49,269 nucleotides of DNA from a virus (taxonomy: Duplodnaviria; Heunggongvirae; Uroviricota; Caudoviricetes): IMG/VR virus record IMGVR_UViG_2778261422_000003. One strand, 5' to 3'. The notes under the pieces were generated by a model. That model was not told the origin of the DNA. It saw only the letters and a program-made list of their open reading frames with translations, and searched no databases. A program made the position numbers and the translations under genes. Shown in pieces: positions 37,178 through 47,954 of the stretch; positions within the stretch are counted from its first letter, which is position 1, and every line of letters begins with the position of its first letter.

Positions 37178-38134
37178 CTAGTCTAGTCTCTGTGGAAAGA
37201 GCGCAAGATGCAGATCACCATACTTATCAGGATTTGAATTTATATGCATCAGCAAAACATCCAACTGATTTGTTAAATATTTATTCCTTTCTTTTTTCTC
37301 TTTATCTTCAATATCCTTGAGATTTTTCTTTTCTTCTTTTTCAATGGCTTTCCTTTCCTTTTCAGCTTTTTCCCTAATGTTTACATCTGCCAGTTTTTTA
37401 GCTTTATCCGCTCTAAACTTAATTAAATTATCAACAATACTCTTAACATATTGTTTACCAGATAGTATTTTTCTCGCCTCTTCGATAATAGTAATACTGT
37501 AATCAACACACTCATTACCATATTTAAAAGCATACTCAGGGGATAATTCTTTTATAGCTGAGGAACTAGAATTATCAGACAAATATGGTTCACTTAAATG
37601 AGCGAAAGATCCCCTATACGAGGAGAAATTTTCCCATGACGAAAAGTTTTCATCTTCCACATCACAATGAATACCTACAGATTGAAGAACAGAATTTAAA
37701 TGCTTTGTTTTTATTCCGTGATTGGAAGTGATGACACTCTTCCATTTCATGATAGTCCTCATTTCACAATCAACAATAAACTCAACAACATGTTGTTTTA
37801 TATAAGAACTATCATCATCCCTATCATCAGCATCCTCGTTAGTAACAAATCTGTCATCATAACTTTTCGTCCCATTTAATAAAAACATCAATGGTATAGT
37901 AACCTCCCCACATTCTTTGAACAGGAAAAACGAATATTTAGCGACAAAAAGGCTGACATCCTCAACAAAATTTTCAAGAGCTGCATGTAATAGAACACAA
38001 TAACTTCTTGTATCTAATTTAAATTCCTCAACACTACCAGTACCGTTCATGTGTTTTTTAAGAAAGCGATTATACAAGGCATCATTTGCGTCATACAGAG
38101 TGTAATACATATCATCTAATAAGGTAATCTCCAT
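37178..38134 (-). CDS. uncharacterised protein, distal gene of the AT-rich cargo operon; candidate effector partner of the DUF262 protein
   Basis: 318-aa ORF starting 5 nt after the upstream gene's stop (operon-like); very AT-rich codon usage; R-x4-H motif (YRGSFAH); acidic patch (EDADDRDDD); Lys/Glu-rich coiled-coil C-terminus. Confidence 0.75.
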   Translation of the reverse strand: MEITLLDDMYYTLYDANDALYNRFLKKHMNGTGSVEEFKLDTRSYCVLLHAALENFVEDVSLFVAKYSFFLFKECGEVTIPLMFLLNGTKSYDDRFVTNEDADDRDDDSSYIKQHVVEFIVDCEMRTIMKWKSVITSNHGIKTKHLNSVLQSVGIHCDVEDENFSSWENFSSYRGSFAHLSEPYLSDNSSSSAIKELSPEYAFKYGNECVDYSITIIEEARKILSGKQYVKSIVDNLIKFRADKAKKLADVNIREKAEKERKAIEKEEKKNLKDIEDKEKKERNKYLTNQLDVLLMHINSNPDKYGDLHLALFPQRLD

Positions 38135-38138
38135 TTTT

Positions 38139-39326
38139 TTACCTTAAGGTTGATGGGATCTCATTGCTTAATCCCATTGAAGAATTTAATCTTTCATATG
38201 CCAGTCTAAACCTTCTTACATGTTGTTCTTTACCTGTCGTAGTTGACTCAATTGCTACAACAAACTCAGCATTATCAAAAAGAGATTTTATAGAGTTAAT
38301 AAATTCATTTTTTTTCTCTATTAAATCATCTACCTTGTTATTCTGTATTGTACTAGCAATATAGTTAACTAAAACCTCAAAAAATGTACGATTAAATCTT
38401 GATTCCCATCGTTCCTCTATTGGAAGCCATTTTCTACCTACTTTTGTTTCTTCACCATCAAAAAGGTTGACAAGCACCTCACATGATTCATTAAAAAGGT
38501 TGAGATAGTTACATACACCAGCTTCTTTAGATGCGAAATTATCATTCATCAATTTAGTGAAGTTATCTAAATAGACCCTAAGAGAACCATTGTATTTTTC
38601 TGGGTTAAGGTTTAATGCTAGAAACTTCAATAAAATCTCAACATCCCGATATCTTTTATCTGATGACTTAAGTTTCATTATTTTATGCAGATGCAAATCG
38701 TTATCTGTATGCCTTGTAATGAAATTACTAAAATCCCCTTTGTAAATCGAGTTCCTCAACTCCTGCATAGACAATGGTGAAGATCCAGTATTTAGTCTGT
38801 AAAATATATCATATAGGACGCTATAATCCTTAAAACCTGAAAGTATTGTGCAGCGTAGATCAGCATTGAGTAAGAATCTAGCATCGTCTTTAGAAAACTC
38901 TGAGAATTTCAACCCTTCAATCGATTTTTTAATTGTTAGATTTCTTAACTTAGCATTACCATCCCATGTATTAAAACTAGGATCGATGAAACCATTTATA
39001 GCTAATAGTCTCTGTTTTCCATCGATGACCATGTATTTTTTCTTTTCGCCTATAACTTCAGCTAATACTACTTCGGGTACAGGGTACCCCACAAGTAATG
39101 ACTCTATAAGCTTTGATCTTTTATCGTTGTCCCATACATTTCTTCTTTGAAAGTCAGGATTCAAATCAATGTTTCCTTCCTCAATTTGATGAAGAATCGT
39201 CTGAACCGTCCAGTCTCTGGAATAAACAACAAGCTCTCCGACGTCTATATCGTTACCAGCGCTTTCAACTTGTTCTTTATTACTTTCAATAATCAAATCA
39301 TCTAATTCATCAATCATTGTATTCAC
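38139..39326 (-). CDS. DUF262 (ParB/Srx-fold, GmrS-like) domain protein, proximal gene of the AT-rich cargo operon
   Basis: 395-aa ORF; N-terminal region carries the DUF262 signature (PDFQRRNVWDNDKRSKLIESLLVGYPVP ... MVIDGKQRLLAINGF); no DUF1524/HNH-like motif seen in the C-terminal 250 residues. Confidence 0.8.
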   Translation of the reverse strand: MNTMIDELDDLIIESNKEQVESAGNDIDVGELVVYSRDWTVQTILHQIEEGNIDLNPDFQRRNVWDNDKRSKLIESLLVGYPVPEVVLAEVIGEKKKYMVIDGKQRLLAINGFIDPSFNTWDGNAKLRNLTIKKSIEGLKFSEFSKDDARFLLNADLRCTILSGFKDYSVLYDIFYRLNTGSSPLSMQELRNSIYKGDFSNFITRHTDNDLHLHKIMKLKSSDKRYRDVEILLKFLALNLNPEKYNGSLRVYLDNFTKLMNDNFASKEAGVCNYLNLFNESCEVLVNLFDGEETKVGRKWLPIEERWESRFNRTFFEVLVNYIASTIQNNKVDDLIEKKNEFINSIKSLFDNAEFVVAIESTTTGKEQHVRRFRLAYERLNSSMGLSNEIPSTLR

Positions 39327-39715
39327 CTTATTTACTATGTTAAGTAGTAAGAGTCAAGTTGACTCATCTTAAAATCTACCTTCCCTTCCTTGTCTAGCAC
39401 CGGAAGACAAACGTCCCACAGTGTTTTTTTACTGCACTCTCATCTCGAAAGCTATAAGTAGTTCTCTGTGCCATTCTACTGCTGGTTTCAAGGAATATTA
39501 TCTGGTTTCCAATTTTACAATATCTACTCTATTTTTGTATCGACTAATGCTATAAGCAATATAACTGAAGCACACTTTATTATGCTACCCTCCATTTTCG
39601 GCTATGATTCAAACCTACAAACATTGAATTTACTGTTATAAGGAGATTTTTACCACGTCCGCTTCTGGCATAAAGTTGACATACGGATACGAACGAAATA
39701 AGTGCTCTAGAATTC

Positions 39716-40432
39716 TTATTGTTTATATTGGGCAAGATTTTTAATAATACTTTCCCTCTCATTAAGGAGACTTATATACATTGATTCATCGAGTGTATTC
39801 TTGAGCTTGAAACGGGATTTATGTATTGATAATTTAGATACACCATCACTTAATGCTGAAGCAACTAATTTTGTATCTTCTATGTTTTTTAGGTTCGATA
39901 GTAGCGTTAGGATCATATCATTTAGATCAAGTAACTCGCTATTTATGCGCATAGGTGAGAGGTCTTTACTATCTAGTTGAGAGTTAATGGAATCAATCTT
40001 ATTATTAATTCTCTCTATAGACCCAACGATTCCTTTTCTAGCTTCAATACGAAGGATTTCACTCTTGTTTCTAGAGTTTGTCTGGAAAAGCATTTCTGAA
40101 GATAACATTGATGACGCACGATACATATCAGAGGCTAACTGCTTAACACTTTCTCTAAAGCTTGAATAATTTAATATTGCTGAACCAAACAATAAAATAA
40201 TTGGGCCATAAGCAGTTACCTTTGCTTTAATTGAACCTTCAGTAAATTTAATTTCAATTAAAACATCATCAGATAAAAAGAATTTTATTCTTTTATCAGC
40301 AAAATCCTCTATTTCGTTTCTAATTCGCGATAACTTTTCTTTACGAATTACAGCACTTACCTGTTTCAACCATCTCGGCTCAACATGAACATATGACTCA
40401 CATAATATGTTGCTGTTTATATAATCGGCCAC
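39716..40432 (-). CDS. uncharacterised protein in the AT-rich cargo island, separate transcription unit upstream of the DUF262 operon
   Basis: 238-aa ORF, AT-rich, Ser/Leu/Ile/Asn-rich; about 390 bp intergenic gap to the downstream DUF262 gene; no recognisable motif. Confidence 0.6.
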   Translation of the reverse strand: MADYINSNILCESYVHVEPRWLKQVSAVIRKEKLSRIRNEIEDFADKRIKFFLSDDVLIEIKFTEGSIKAKVTAYGPIILLFGSAILNYSSFRESVKQLASDMYRASSMLSSEMLFQTNSRNKSEILRIEARKGIVGSIERINNKIDSINSQLDSKDLSPMRINSELLDLNDMILTLLSNLKNIEDTKLVASALSDGVSKLSIHKSRFKLKNTLDESMYISLLNERESIIKNLAQYKQ

Positions 40433-43487: not shown

Positions 43488-43640
43488 ATGGATACTATCG
43501 ATCTTGGCAACAGCGAATCTCTGGTATGTGGCGTGTTCCCCAACCAGGACGGTACGTTCACCGCGATGACATATACCAAAAGCAAAACGTTTAAAACCGA
43601 ATCTGGCGCGCGTTGCTGGTTAGCCAGAAACACTGACTGA
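43488..43640 (+). CDS. ydfA: small prophage protein YdfA
   Basis: ORF 43410..43640; ATG at 43488 after a gggg-aaatgagg RBS; product MDTIDLGNSESLVCGVFPNQDGTFTAMTYTKSKTFKTE... (about 50 aa) matches recalled YdfA. Confidence 0.7.
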   Translation: MDTIDLGNSESLVCGVFPNQDGTFTAMTYTKSKTFKTESGARCWLARNTD

Positions 43641-43651
43641 TGAGGCTGACG

Positions 43652-44017
43652 ATGGAATTTAAAGATTTACCGTCTGATGTACAGAAAACAGCAGCTCATA
43701 CATTGCATTCTGTGCTGCGAGAAATCGGGAAAGATATTGCAAGCGAGCCAGCAAAAGATCTGGCCCGGAAAATCAAGACCGCTTTCGTTGAGCTTTATAA
43801 TGTTGGCACTGACTCTGAAACTGTCGAGACCAAGACCGTAAGTTCACCAATATTCTCACTTGAGCCAGGCGTATTATCAGGTGAAATATGCACCGAGATT
43901 TCCAGCGAACTGCTTCCGGTAATACGAGAAGCAATTTGCCGTCGCGGTTTGGATGGAAGTTACGATCATGACGTCCTGCAAGTTCTCAGGACAATGGTGA
44001 CTTCACTGGGGGTTTGA
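43652..44017 (+). CDS. hypothetical protein (ydfB/ydfC region)
   Basis: ORF 43640..44017 (125 aa) following ydfA on the same strand; correspondence to ydfB/ydfC not verified. Confidence 0.5.
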   Translation: MEFKDLPSDVQKTAAHTLHSVLREIGKDIASEPAKDLARKIKTAFVELYNVGTDSETVETKTVSSPIFSLEPGVLSGEICTEISSELLPVIREAICRRGLDGSYDHDVLQVLRTMVTSLGV

Positions 44018-44186
44018 TCCCTGCGTCCTCTAACCTTTTGATATAGCGGTCCTCCAAGAAGCGGTAAATTTTGTCGAAATCATCTTTCCCCTCTGGTTTA
44101 TTCAGAGGATTACAGGACCCGTAAGTAGCGGCATACATTTCAACCGTTTTATCAAAAATATAAGAGACAAATTCTTCTTTAGTCAT
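43986..44186 (-). CDS. hypothetical small protein on the opposite strand
   Basis: ORF 43986..44273; internal start MTKEEFVSYIFDKTVEMYAATYG...; lower GC than flanks; coding status uncertain. Confidence 0.3.
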   Translation of the reverse strand: MTKEEFVSYIFDKTVEMYAATYGSCNPLNKPEGKDDFDKIYRFLEDRYIKRLEDAGIKPPVKSPLS

Positions 44187-44461
44187 ATAGATTTCCTTCT
44201 TGGTTATTCGGAATAAGAAGGATACCACCTCGCCTGACGTGGTTAAAAGCAGGCACACAACACGAAAGCGCACGGCGAAGTTCGTCTCACTGTACGGTGT
44301 CGTTAAATTTAATTCGACCGTGCGCTTCCGGTTGTGGCAACCCGCGAAATGGCGCGGCGGTAAGTATGGCGGGGTTATTCCTTCCCCGTTGAGGACACCG
44401 AGTTGTCAGGTTGACCATACGCTTAAGTGACAACCCCGCTGCAACGCCCTCTGTTATCAAT

Positions 44462-44518
44462 TTTCTGGTGACGTTTGGCGGTATCAGTTTTACTCCGTGA
44501 CTGCTCTGCCGCCGTTTT
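44462..44518 (+). ncRNA. dicF: DicF small regulatory RNA (ftsZ-targeting sRNA) with intrinsic terminator
   Basis: sequence tttctggtgacgtttggcggtatcagttttactccgtgactgctctgccgcc followed by a T run matches recalled DicF; GGCGG...CCGCC stem. Confidence 0.8.
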
Positions 44519-44688: not shown

Positions 44689-44877
44689 ATGAAAACGTTA
44701 TTACCAAACGTTAATACGTCTGAAGGTTGTTTTGAAATTGGTGTCACTATCAGTAACCCTGTATTTACTGAAGATGCCATTAACAAGAGAAAACAAGAAC
44801 GGGAGCTATTAAATAAAATATGCATTGTTTCAATGCTGGCTCGTTTACGTCTGATGCCAAAAGGATGTGCACAATGA
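44689..44877 (+). CDS. dicB: cell-division inhibitor DicB
   Basis: ORF 44584..44877; ATG at 44689 gives 62 aa MKTLLPNVNTSEGCFEIGVTISNPVFTEDAINKRKQERELLNKICIVSMLARLRLMPKGCAQ matching recalled DicB. Confidence 0.85.
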   Translation: MKTLLPNVNTSEGCFEIGVTISNPVFTEDAINKRKQERELLNKICIVSMLARLRLMPKGCAQ

Positions 44878-45065
44878 ATTCAGCATTTGCGCTTGTTCTG
44901 ACAGTTTTTCTTGTTTCCGGAGAGCCAGTTGATATTGCAGTCAGTGTTCACAGGACAATGCAGGAGTGTATGACTGCAGCAACCGAACAGAAAATTCCCG
45001 GTAACTGTTACCCGGTCGATAAAGTTATTCACCAGGATAATATCGAAATCCCGGCAGGTCTTTAA
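44874..45065 (+). CDS. ydfD: small membrane protein YdfD (lysis-associated)
   Basis: ORF 44820..45065; ATG at 44874 overlapping dicB stop (ATGA); 63 aa MNSAFALVLTVFLVSGEPVDIAVSVHRTMQEC... with one TM helix. Confidence 0.75.
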   Translation: MNSAFALVLTVFLVSGEPVDIAVSVHRTMQECMTAATEQKIPGNCYPVDKVIHQDNIEIPAGL

Positions 45066-45158
45066 AACAGTTCCGTAATAAATATCCGGTTTCATTCTTA
45101 TATGCCAGCAATGGCAGGGATTTGTTCATCCTTAAATCTGTCATGAGGTTAAAACAAA

Positions 45159-47630
45159 ATGAGTAAAGTCTTTATTTGCGCCGCTATTCCTGACGAACTG
45201 GCAACAAGGGAAGAAGGCGCTGTGGCTGTAGCCACAGCCATTGAAGCTGGCGACGAACGCCGTGCTCGAGCAAAATTTCACTGGCAGTTCCTGGAACATT
45301 ATCCGGCTGCTCAGGACTGCGCTTATAAATTTATTGTCTGCGAGGATAAACCTGGCATACCCCGCCCTGCCCTCGATTCATGGGATGCTGAATATATGCA
45401 GGAAAACCGCTGGGATGAGGAGTCTGCTTCTTTTGTCCCGGTTGAGACTGAATCCGATCCGATGAACGTCACTTTTGACAAGCTGGCCCCTGAAGTACAG
45501 AACGCTGTCATGGTTAAGTTCGACACATGTGAAAACATCACCGTTGATATGGTTATTAGCGCACAGGAATTGTTGCAGGAAGACATGGCAACATTCGACG
45601 GCCATATCGTTGAAGCGTTGATGAAAATGCCAGAAGTTAACGCTATGTATCCGGAGCTTAAGCTGCATGCCATCGGGTGGGTTAAGCATAAATGTAAGCC
45701 TGGTGCCAAATGGCCCGAAATTCAGGCAGAGATGCGCATCTGGAAAAAACGTCGCGAAGGTGAACGCAAGGAAGCCGGAAAATACACGTCTGTTGTTGAT
45801 CTCGCCCGCGCCAGAGCCAATCAACAGCACACTGAAAATTCAACAGGAAAAATCAACCCGGTCATTGCTGCCATTCATCGCGAATACAAGCAGACATGGA
45901 AAACACTGGATGACGAACTGGCCTACGCTCTCTGGCCTGGTGATGTAGATGCCGGAAACATTGACGGCAGCATCCATCGCTGGGCAAAAAATGAAGTTAT
46001 CGACAACGACCGCGAAGACTGGAAGCGTATCTCGGCATCAATGCGCAAACAGCCTGATGCCCTTCGCTACGACCGCCAGACTATTTTTGGCCTTGTCCGT
46101 GAACGTCCGATCGACATTCACAAAGACCCTGTGGCACTGAACAAATACATTACTGAATACCTGACTACAAAGGGCGTGTTTGAAGATGAAGGAACAAATC
46201 AGAGCGCAACTGATACTCTCTCGTCGCCAGTACCAGAAACTGATGCAGTGGAAACGGCAATTCCAGACAACGAAAAAACCGAATGCAAAGTGGAAGTCGA
46301 ACCATCTGTAGAACGTGAGGGGCCGTTCTACTTCCTCTTCACCGACAAGGATGGCGAAAAATACGGTCGCGCAAACAAACTTTCTGGTCTGGATAAGGCG
46401 CTGTCTGCTGGGGCTACTGAAATCACGAAAGAAGAATATTTCGCCCGCAAAAACGGTACATACTCAGGTTCACAACAAAATACTGGTGCATCTGACACGA
46501 CCGCACAACCAGGGTCAGTAAAAGTTACCGCTGACGAAGTAAACAAAATTATGCAGGCAGCCAATATCAGCCAGCCTGACGCCGATGAACTGCTTGCAGT
46601 ATCACGTGGTGAATTTGTTGAAGGGATTAGCGACCCGAATGATCCGAAATGGGTTAAGGGGATCCAGACCCGCGATTCTGTGAACCAGAACCAGCAAGAA
46701 ACGGAACAGAACGACCAGAAAGCGGAACAAAACAGCCCAAATACGCAACAAAACGAGCCAGAAACGAAACAACCTGAACCAGTAGTGCAACAGGAACCGG
46801 AAAAGATCTGCACCGCCTGCGGTCATAGCGGTGGCGGCAACTGCCCTGATTGTGGTGCGGTGATGGGTGACGCAACATACCAGGAAATATTCGATGGAGA
46901 GAATCAGCCTGAAGTTCAGGAAAATGATCCGGAGGAAATGGAAGGCACTGCGCATCAGCACAAGGAGAACACTGGCGGCAATCAGCATCATGCCAGCGAT
47001 AGTGAAACTGGCGAGGCGTCAGATCCCTTAATTAAGGCGAACGGTCATCATAATCTCACATCCACCAGCAGAGCGGGGATTCATCTGATGATCGACCTTG
47101 AAACCATGGGAAAAAATCCCGATGCCCCGATTATCTCAATAGGTGCAATATTTTTCGATCCGCAAACCGGAGATATGGGACCGGAATTTAGTAAGACTAT
47201 CGATCTGGAAACTGCTGGCGGAGTCATTGATCGGGACACCATTAAATGGTGGCTTAAACAATCACGCGAAGCGCAATCTGCCATTATGACCGATGAAATC
47301 CCGTTAGATGATGCACTGTTACAATTGCGGGAATTTATCGACGAAAACTCCGGTGAATTTTTTGTTCATGTCTGGGGAAATGGAGCCAACTTCGACAACA
47401 CGATTTTGCGCCGTTCATACGAACGGCAGGGGATCCCCTGCCCGTGGCGTTACTACAACGATCGCGATGTACGCACAATCGTTGAGCTGGGGAAAGCCAT
47501 AGACTTCGATGCCAGAACGGCTATTCCATTCGAAGGTGAGCGCCATAATGCACTTGATGACGCCCGTTACCAGGCAAAATACGTTTCAGCTATCTGGCAA
47601 AAACTGATCCCGAGTCAGGCTGATTCTTAA
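45159..47630 (+). CDS. ydfE: large multidomain protein (YdfE-like N-terminus) with C-terminal DnaQ-like DEDDh 3'-5' exonuclease domain
   Basis: 823-aa ORF; acidic/Gln-rich low-complexity linker; Cys4 zinc-ribbon (CTACGHSGGGNCPDCG); C-terminal motifs MIDLETMG, HVWGNGANFD, HNALDDARYQA typical of the DnaQ exonuclease fold. Confidence 0.75.
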   Translation: MSKVFICAAIPDELATREEGAVAVATAIEAGDERRARAKFHWQFLEHYPAAQDCAYKFIVCEDKPGIPRPALDSWDAEYMQENRWDEESASFVPVETESDPMNVTFDKLAPEVQNAVMVKFDTCENITVDMVISAQELLQEDMATFDGHIVEALMKMPEVNAMYPELKLHAIGWVKHKCKPGAKWPEIQAEMRIWKKRREGERKEAGKYTSVVDLARARANQQHTENSTGKINPVIAAIHREYKQTWKTLDDELAYALWPGDVDAGNIDGSIHRWAKNEVIDNDREDWKRISASMRKQPDALRYDRQTIFGLVRERPIDIHKDPVALNKYITEYLTTKGVFEDEGTNQSATDTLSSPVPETDAVETAIPDNEKTECKVEVEPSVEREGPFYFLFTDKDGEKYGRANKLSGLDKALSAGATEITKEEYFARKNGTYSGSQQNTGASDTTAQPGSVKVTADEVNKIMQAANISQPDADELLAVSRGEFVEGISDPNDPKWVKGIQTRDSVNQNQQETEQNDQKAEQNSPNTQQNEPETKQPEPVVQQEPEKICTACGHSGGGNCPDCGAVMGDATYQEIFDGENQPEVQENDPEEMEGTAHQHKENTGGNQHHASDSETGEASDPLIKANGHHNLTSTSRAGIHLMIDLETMGKNPDAPIISIGAIFFDPQTGDMGPEFSKTIDLETAGGVIDRDTIKWWLKQSREAQSAIMTDEIPLDDALLQLREFIDENSGEFFVHVWGNGANFDNTILRRSYERQGIPCPWRYYNDRDVRTIVELGKAIDFDARTAIPFEGERHNALDDARYQAKYVSAIWQKLIPSQADS

Positions 47631-47702: not shown

Positions 47703-47954
47703 ATGAGCGAAGTAATCATGATTGTCTCTCCCGGCAAATGGGTATCCGAAGAGCAGTTAATTGCGCTGAAAGGAATAAAAAAAGGTACGTTAAAAAAGGC
47801 CCGGGAAAAATCGTTTATGGAAGGAAGGGAATATAAGCATGTCGCTCATGACGGTATGCCATGGGATAACAGTCCATGCTTTTACAACCTGGAAGAAATT
47901 GATCGCTGGATTGAGCGCCAGGCATCAGCAAGACCAAGACGTCATCTTACTTGA
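47703..47954 (+). CDS. putative excisionase / recombination directionality factor
   Basis: 83-aa ORF immediately upstream of the integrase on the same strand; assignment by position and size only. Confidence 0.5.
   Translation: MSEVIMIVSPGKWVSEEQLIALKGIKKGTLKKAREKSFMEGREYKHVAHDGMPWDNSPCFYNLEEIDRWIERQASARPRRHLT

Follow-up and report, generated by a model that had tools for sequence, protein, structure and literature searches.

RecE/RecT is a workhorse of recombineering, and the first ~560 residues of RecE boost linear-linear recombination. RecE itself (exodeoxyribonuclease VIII of the Rac prophage, the partner of RecT) carries, according to Pfam, the domain PF06630 at amino acids (aa) 2-178 and a PD-(D/E)XK domain, PF12684, at aa 615-850. 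Another described system is that of DexA, an exonuclease of phage T4, and its Escherichia coli homologue EcD, which degrades T4 DNA containing 5-hydroxymethylcytosine (5hmC), not unmodified double-stranded DNA, and shields cells from T4 (PMC12153337, 2025). A third is ydfE of E. coli K-12, described in a recent preprint as a pseudogene transcribed from the DicA-repressed dicB promoter. In the present study, we compared with these systems a gene for an 823-aa protein on a 49,269-nucleotide (nt) stretch of tailed-phage DNA (IMG/VR record IMGVR_UViG_2778261422_000003; "the window" hereafter means this whole stretch).

The protein joins a RecE-like non-catalytic region to a DEDDh exonuclease domain whose catalytic residues are intact; its gene stands in the order dicB, ydfD, the 823-aa gene, xis and int, has no annealase partner, and is represented in K-12 by the ydfE remnant cut by IS2. 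On this basis we favour, with about half of our confidence, the reading that the gene encodes an early-operon, DicA-repressed protein of DNA-end processing or recombination which works without an annealase of its own, a function that we infer. The gene is common, already annotated and among the published DexA homologues; what is new is its paralogy with RecE under a swapped nuclease, and an N-terminal region that is common to PD-(D/E)XK and Rad52-like fusions.

The RecE-like region and the DEDDh domain

The Pfam scan placed PF16473 (Rv2179c-like 3'-5' exonuclease) at the C-terminus of the protein, with an E value of 9.9e-67 and 224.5 bits against a gathering cutoff of 27, and the match spans profile positions 2-177 of 177, far beyond chance. 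The motifs MIDLETMG, HVWGNGANFD and HNALDDARYQA lie at aa 644-651, 737-746 and 796-806, respectively, and ten homologues, fused or stand-alone, all keep the catalytic residues D646, E648, D746, H796 and D801, down to 54% identity. T4 DexA (8kel) was the only sequence match in the PDB (E 5.6e-6 when searched with all 823 aa, 2.4e-7 with only the domain), and its residues D7, E9 and D119 align with D646, E648 and D746. At the level of sequence, we regard as confirmed an intact DEDDh exonuclease domain at the C-terminus, with a predicted 3'-5' polarity.

Both DexA and EcD have the Pfam family and the DEDDh catalytic residues in common with the 823-aa protein. The protein is, however, only ~30% identical to DexA over the aligned region and its domain is joined to 640 aa of RecE-like sequence, whereas EcD is a stand-alone protein of another branch that begins MIDTET; the 823-aa gene also sits in a repressed operon. 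Asp718 aligns with DexA D90 and is invariant in 10 of 10 homologues, in an alignment of ~30% identity that is possibly off by one residue. The position of DexA W152 is taken by Tyr766 (Trp in LLS and 1720a-02, Phe in PhiR46_1 and Cys in two others), and that of D169 lies outside the alignable region. Closer relatives of the domain are the stand-alone ~190-aa DEDDh exonucleases of lambdoid and CPS-53-like phages (LLS gp34, 1720a-02, PhiR46_1), which are 54-61% identical and keep all catalytic residues but lack both the RecE-like N-terminal region and the zinc ribbon. In LLS and 1720a-02 the stand-alone gene ends the left operon, before xis/int, with no annealase annotated nearby. As for the primers matching EcD (HAK9828821.1), the forward 17-mer was absent from the fetched loci, and the reverse 20-mer gave a single chance match in the viral contigs and another in the genome contigs, neither of them in a DEDDh gene.

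Upstream of this domain the protein follows RecE. With the Rac RecE of NEB10-beta (866 aa) as reference, BLASTP aligned aa 262-625 with RecE 278-591 at an E value of 2e-60, and from aa ~470 to 625 (RecE 450-591) the identity is near-complete, zinc ribbon included: it reads CTACGHSGGGNCPDC in the 823-aa protein and CNACGQTGGDNCPDC in RecE (C517..C531), and is kept in only a subset of relatives. The NCBIfam RecE equivalog NF007259 aligned aa 245-626 with model positions 270-603 of 877 at 273 bits, below its cutoff of 1269, so that by this model the protein is not a full-length RecE. DNA similarity to recE is limited to nt 1425-1874 of the gene (window 46583..47032), at 76%. A short segment at aa 376-445 that is conserved in YdfE-type relatives is absent from Rac RecE, falling in a gap of the alignment.

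In the Pfam scan the protein matched neither PF12684, the PD-(D/E)XK 5'-3' nuclease domain of RecE, nor PF06630 (Exonuc_VIII). Nevertheless, hhalign of 16 YdfE-type against 13 RecE-type N-termini returned a probability of 98% (E 2.3e-13, 226 columns), and trimming 35 or 60 residues from the C-terminal end lowered it only to 94.6% and 93.2%, while two unrelated control profiles reached 0.1% and 1.4%. Since the match survives trimming, the N-terminus is best taken as a remote RecE homologue and not as a member of PF06630 as Pfam defines that family. In the AlphaFold2 (AF2) model, aa 1-256 consist of an alpha/beta sub-domain (~aa 1-100) and a helical sub-domain (~aa 105-226), with a mean predicted local distance difference test (pLDDT) score of 88.9; the N-terminal region is conserved down to about 25% identity with a confident predicted fold. 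Judged from these alignments, the entire stretch of aa 1-625 represents the non-catalytic region of RecE in diverged form, and only the catalytic domain differs in kind. With the zinc ribbon and the whole of aa 1-625 being RecE-like, the protein is therefore to be read as a RecE paralogue with a swapped nuclease rather than as an unrelated fusion. Both genes occupy the lambdoid early-left slot near xis/int and their products are of similar length (823 vs 866 aa); the nuclease, in contrast, is PD-(D/E)XK 5'-3' in RecE and DEDDh (predicted 3'-5') here, and recE has recT as its neighbour whereas no recT or other annealase gene lies beside the 823-aa gene.

The preliminary description of this locus, drawn up from the letters alone, had proposed that a YdfE-like N-terminus is fused to a zinc ribbon and to a DnaQ-like exonuclease with DEDDh motifs, with A-rich low-complexity DNA encoding an acidic Gln/Asn/Glu-rich linker, and had suggested a Pfam domain scan, an alignment with K-12 ydfE and Rac recE, and a structure prediction as checks. 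The proposed architecture was borne out by the exonuclease fold of PF16473, by 98% identity to ydfE over aa 1-256, by the RecE alignment and by the four Cys, and the base composition agrees with the linker as described. The structure prediction, a model of aa 1-345, showed no annealase fold. What that description overlooked is that the zinc ribbon and all of aa 1-625 are RecE-like, and that the gene is common and widely annotated.

Genetic context and relatives of the 823-aa gene

The window corresponds to an entire Qin-type lambdoid prophage, located between ydfJ and rspB and collinear with a prophage of E. coli MY203L1. Around the 823-aa gene its order runs dicC, dicA, small open reading frames (ORFs), DicF RNA, dicB, ydfD, the 823-aa gene, excisionase and integrase. 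Neither a plus-strand promoter-like site nor a convincing terminator was found flanking the 823-aa gene, which is most simply taken to be co-transcribed with dicB and ydfD. Lambdoid phages carry exo/bet or recE/recT in this slot, and the earlier impression that no annealase is encoded here held throughout. Pfam and PHROG scans of the non-structural ORFs of the window (ten ORFs at 33-44 kb where the rest of the window is concerned) and the annotation of collinear prophages by the Prokaryotic Genome Annotation Pipeline (PGAP) revealed no annealase of the RecT/Redbeta/Bet, Erf, Rad52/Sak or Sak4 type, whether encoded by the operon, elsewhere in the window or within the ORF itself; in particular, no annealase gene lies between the 823-aa gene and xis/int. 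Compared with the two-component SynExo systems (Exo/Bet, RecE/RecT), the locus has no adjacent annealase, and its nuclease is DEDDh, not PD-(D/E)XK 5'-3'.

The ydfE fragment of K-12 corresponds to aa 1-256 of the 823-aa protein, and in K-12-derived NEB10-beta gene bases 1-767 only are present, running straight into an IS2 remnant. Because the K-12 copy is a 98% identical fragment that ends at the IS2 remnant, ydfE is present in its intact form in the window, just as had been suspected from the shortness of the K-12 gene. Copies with at least 80% coverage occur in 3,534 of the 5,426 complete E. coli genomes, the full-length copies among the matches listed being 89.6-99.3% identical, and genomes with any match have a median of two matching places, partial copies counted. 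The gene is also present in the phages mEp460, Tritos and the PPompW group. Databases label the protein "exonuclease" or "3'-5' exoribonuclease", and its match to PHROG 2082 is essentially full length (1-822 of 823). Additionally, PF27430 and PF27432 appear in the precomputed Pfam annotation of homologues P0001-P0120; apparently, Pfam curators have by now set up domain families within the non-catalytic region.

The first large protein homology search returned only relatives that are at least 90% identical. When aa 1-640 were compared with 1.84 billion representatives at 50% identity, only 248 relatives were retrieved, many of them fragments. The 48 relatives with 450 aa or more comprise 7 that end in a DEDDh domain, 13 that end in PD-(D/E)XK, 16 with a third conserved domain of ~260 aa and 12 with an unrecognised C-terminus, and each effector is found with both N-terminal types. 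One chimera, P0128, combines RecE residues 1-280 at 99-100% identity with the DEDDh domain of the window at 99%; in another E. coli strain an 813-aa gene matching it follows dicB-ydfD and precedes the integrase, again without an annealase. In P0128-type chimeras the join of a RecE-type to a YdfE/DEDDh-type half falls around the central stretch of linker and zinc ribbon (46583..47032), apparently a site at which recombination shuffles the domains.

The predicted fold of the third, ~260-aa domain matches the Rad52/Mgm101 annealases. Its representatives are gp07 of the Pectobacterium phage ZF40 (4950..7115 of its sequence, L013) and relatives (phrog_2489), which have a homologous N-terminal region and sit in the identical slot before xis/int but end in a predicted Rad52/Mgm101-fold annealase with no nuclease. 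ZF40 gp07, P0139, P0167, P0183, P0237 and others bear the label "exonuclease" (phrog_2489, phrog_7838). No recognisable nuclease domain was found in these proteins, and the Rad52/Mgm101-like fold of their C-terminal ~260 aa goes undetected in Pfam and PDB sequence searches; judging from the structural models, the label is probably a mis-annotation, apparently made by transfer, of an unrecognised annealase family. The Rad52-like profile of these relatives matched none of the DEDDh-type representatives, including P0004, which is 94-95% identical. In some YdfE-type relatives, exemplified by the 702-aa P0125, the C-terminal region (phrog_26058) is likewise conserved but is neither nuclease nor Rad52-like and may constitute a fourth effector class on the RecE/YdfE-like scaffold.

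Proposed end processing without an annealase, and the alternatives

The end-processing reading can be put as the following scenario. When DicA repression is lifted, the 823-aa gene would be transcribed with dicB, and its product made alongside DicB, DicF and YdfD. The RecE-like region, comprising three folded sub-domains, conserved linker motifs and the zinc ribbon, could act as a platform that tethers the nuclease at DNA ends, while the DEDDh domain would trim or resect the 3' ends of phage or linear DNA for recombination or end-joining. Finally, the exposed 5' tails might be joined by spontaneous or host-assisted annealing, with no dedicated annealase. An analogy is offered by XthA (ExoIII), which belongs to the AP-endonuclease family. 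E. coli needs this 3'-5' exonuclease, but neither recA nor recET, to join linear DNA in vivo, and the cohesive ends that it makes are joined without a dedicated annealase (PMC6379578). The likeness would be functional only; XthA is a host housekeeping enzyme, with a fold unrelated to that of the 823-aa protein.

Several considerations weigh against this scenario. A 3'-5' exonuclease yields 5' tails, which serve neither RecA loading nor the classical SynExo mechanism as substrates, and no annealase partner exists. DexA and EcD, which among characterised proteins are the nearest to the nuclease domain, act in the scavenging of host DNA, in intron homing and in defence against phages rather than in general recombination (PMC12153337). 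Furthermore, because stand-alone versions precede xis/int in LLS and 1720a-02, the DEDDh nuclease may have a role independent of the N-terminal region. In the model of aa 1-345 that region matched no annealase fold and no characterised structural relative, and for this reason the platform role is pure conjecture on our part. We found no experimental work on the 823-aa protein in the literature.

The most far-reaching form of the end-processing reading is that the RecE/YdfE-like region of ~450-620 aa is a modular recombination platform which accepts a PD-(D/E)XK 5'-3', a DEDDh 3'-5' or a Rad52-fold effector, the DEDDh version driving an undescribed annealase-free route of recombination or end-joining by 3'-5' resection. 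We consider this doubtful; if true, it would explain the purpose of the N-terminal two-thirds of RecE.

The main alternative would be a role in DexA/EcD ("HREX") defence or superinfection exclusion, in which the DEDDh domain degrades incoming phage DNA with modified cytosine (e.g., 5hmC) and so protects the lysogen. We rate it as unlikely, even though T4 DexA is the only solved structure matched by sequence, EcD provides the precedent for selective degradation of 5hmC T4 DNA with protection of the cell, and Table S3 of the same study, on bacterial DexA homologues, includes an 823-aa protein (WP_243052601.1) whose DNA is 99.3% identical to the window gene (PMC12153337). What looks like a defence island with HEPN and GmrSD-like genes also lies in the same window. 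Nevertheless, the 823-aa gene belongs to an early operon under DicA repression and lacks a promoter-like site of its own, so it should be silent in the lysogen. The Asp that forms the tetramer in DexA (D90), Ala in EcD, is kept here, so the loss seen in the defence type has not occurred; the W152 position holds Tyr, not Trp, and the EcD that was tested is a stand-alone protein of a different branch. PADLOC gave only a weak generic DEDDh match (E 1.4e-5), which places the protein outside the catalogued defence systems, and defence leaves unexplained the 640-aa RecE-like region as well as its annealase and PD-(D/E)XK fusions in relatives.

That same region is left without a reason, together with the interchange of the DEDDh nuclease, the RecE nuclease and an annealase on one scaffold, if the protein turns over nucleic acids in the lytic cycle, either scavenging host DNA and oligonucleotides like T4 DexA or acting as a 3'-5' exoribonuclease, e.g., on operon transcripts. 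Temperate lambdoid phages, moreover, are not known to degrade the host chromosome wholesale. This possibility, which we find quite unlikely, draws on the naming of the Pfam family after the Rv2179c exoribonuclease and the many database entries reading "3'-5' exoribonuclease", on the expression of the gene together with the host-shutoff genes dicB, dicF and ydfD, and on the neighbourhood of the stand-alone versions, which have a putative 5'-deoxynucleotidase (yfdR type) three genes upstream in LLS and a gene noted "yfdR" within the same operon in 1720a-02; DexA, for its part, scavenges host DNA (PMC12153337). Very improbable, in our estimation, is a decaying or functionless mosaic that arose by illegitimate prophage recombination and is kept by hitch-hiking. 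The P0128 chimera, the confinement of recE DNA identity (76%) to nt 1425-1874, and the truncated or IS-interrupted copies, K-12 ydfE and H4 among them, could all be seen in that light, but the intact full-length ORF is found in 3,534 of 5,426 genomes and in plaque-forming phages, the catalytic residues are invariant down to 54% identity and the N-terminal region is conserved to about 25%.

A conserved region with a swapped catalytic end provides a natural comparative handle on the role of the enigmatic N-terminal ~560 residues of RecE, and the gene may represent an annealase-free recombination activity encoded by most E. coli genomes. DexA/EcD-like defence, if true, would rank among the most widespread prophage-borne defences in E. 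coli, and the published defence hypothesis (PMC12153337) already touches the family of the 823-aa protein. Under either reading K-12, with its broken gene, is poorly suited as a model for this protein.

Feature coordinates and neighbouring genes

Table 1. Features of the 823-aa gene and its neighbours, in window coordinates.
Feature	Position	Strand	Basis
DicF small RNA, upstream in the same operon as the 823-aa gene	44463..44514	+	Rfam RF00039, 72.5 bits
dicB	44689-44877	+	ORFs; coordinates from PGAP annotation of a locus 99.4% identical over the stretch
ydfD, immediately upstream of the 823-aa gene	44874-45065	+	ORFs; same PGAP transfer
Shine-Dalgarno GAGGT, 9 nt upstream of ATG	45145..45149	+	Read from sequence
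Complete coding sequence, 823 aa + stop, ATG start; RecE-like non-catalytic region, then DEDDh exonuclease	45159..47630	+	ORF list
aa 1-256, YdfE-equivalent N-terminal region; remote homologue of RecE N-terminus (PF06630)	45159..45926	+	ydfE identity, AF2, hhalign
aa 245-340, helical sub-domain common to RecE (RecE aa ~278-350)	45891..46178	+	BLASTP, NF007259, pLDDT >90
aa 376-445, short conserved segment GPFYFLF..GRANKL.., YdfE-type relatives	46284..46493	+	Module BLAST table
aa 451-505, conserved segment common to RecE (LLAxSRGEFVxGISDPNDPKWVKGIQTRD)	46509..46673	+	BLASTP and module BLAST
A-rich low-complexity DNA encoding Gln/Asn/Glu-rich linker, aa ~508-548	46680..46800	+	47% A, 4% T; low sequence entropy
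Zinc ribbon CxxC-x7-CxxC, C551/C554/C562/C565, CTACGHSGGGNCPDC	46809..46853	+	Sequence, RecE alignment
aa 566-640, acidic linker, probably disordered; common to RecE up to ~aa 625	46854..47078	+	RecE alignment
aa 642-813, DEDDh exonuclease domain PF16473 (predicted 3'-5')	47082..47597	+	Pfam, DexA match, catalytic residues
Excisionase, immediately downstream of the 823-aa gene	47703-47954	+	ORFs, PGAP
Tyrosine integrase	47974 to window end (49269)	+	ORFs, PGAP

Elsewhere in the window, a low-GC (~30%) insert of three genes (37178..40432, minus strand), missing from the collinear prophage, lies between a Ren-like DUF977 gene and the hokD/rem region. Its products are a 318-aa HEPN_RiboL-PSP protein, a 395-aa GmrSD_N/DUF262 protein and a 238-aa phrog_31894 protein, and the insert looks like a defence island. 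Additionally, between a ydfA-like gene and DicF, the place of ydfB and ydfC in K-12 is occupied by a 125-aa ORF (43640..44017, plus strand; phrog_33007) and a 95-aa ORF (43986..44273, minus strand; phrog_34441).

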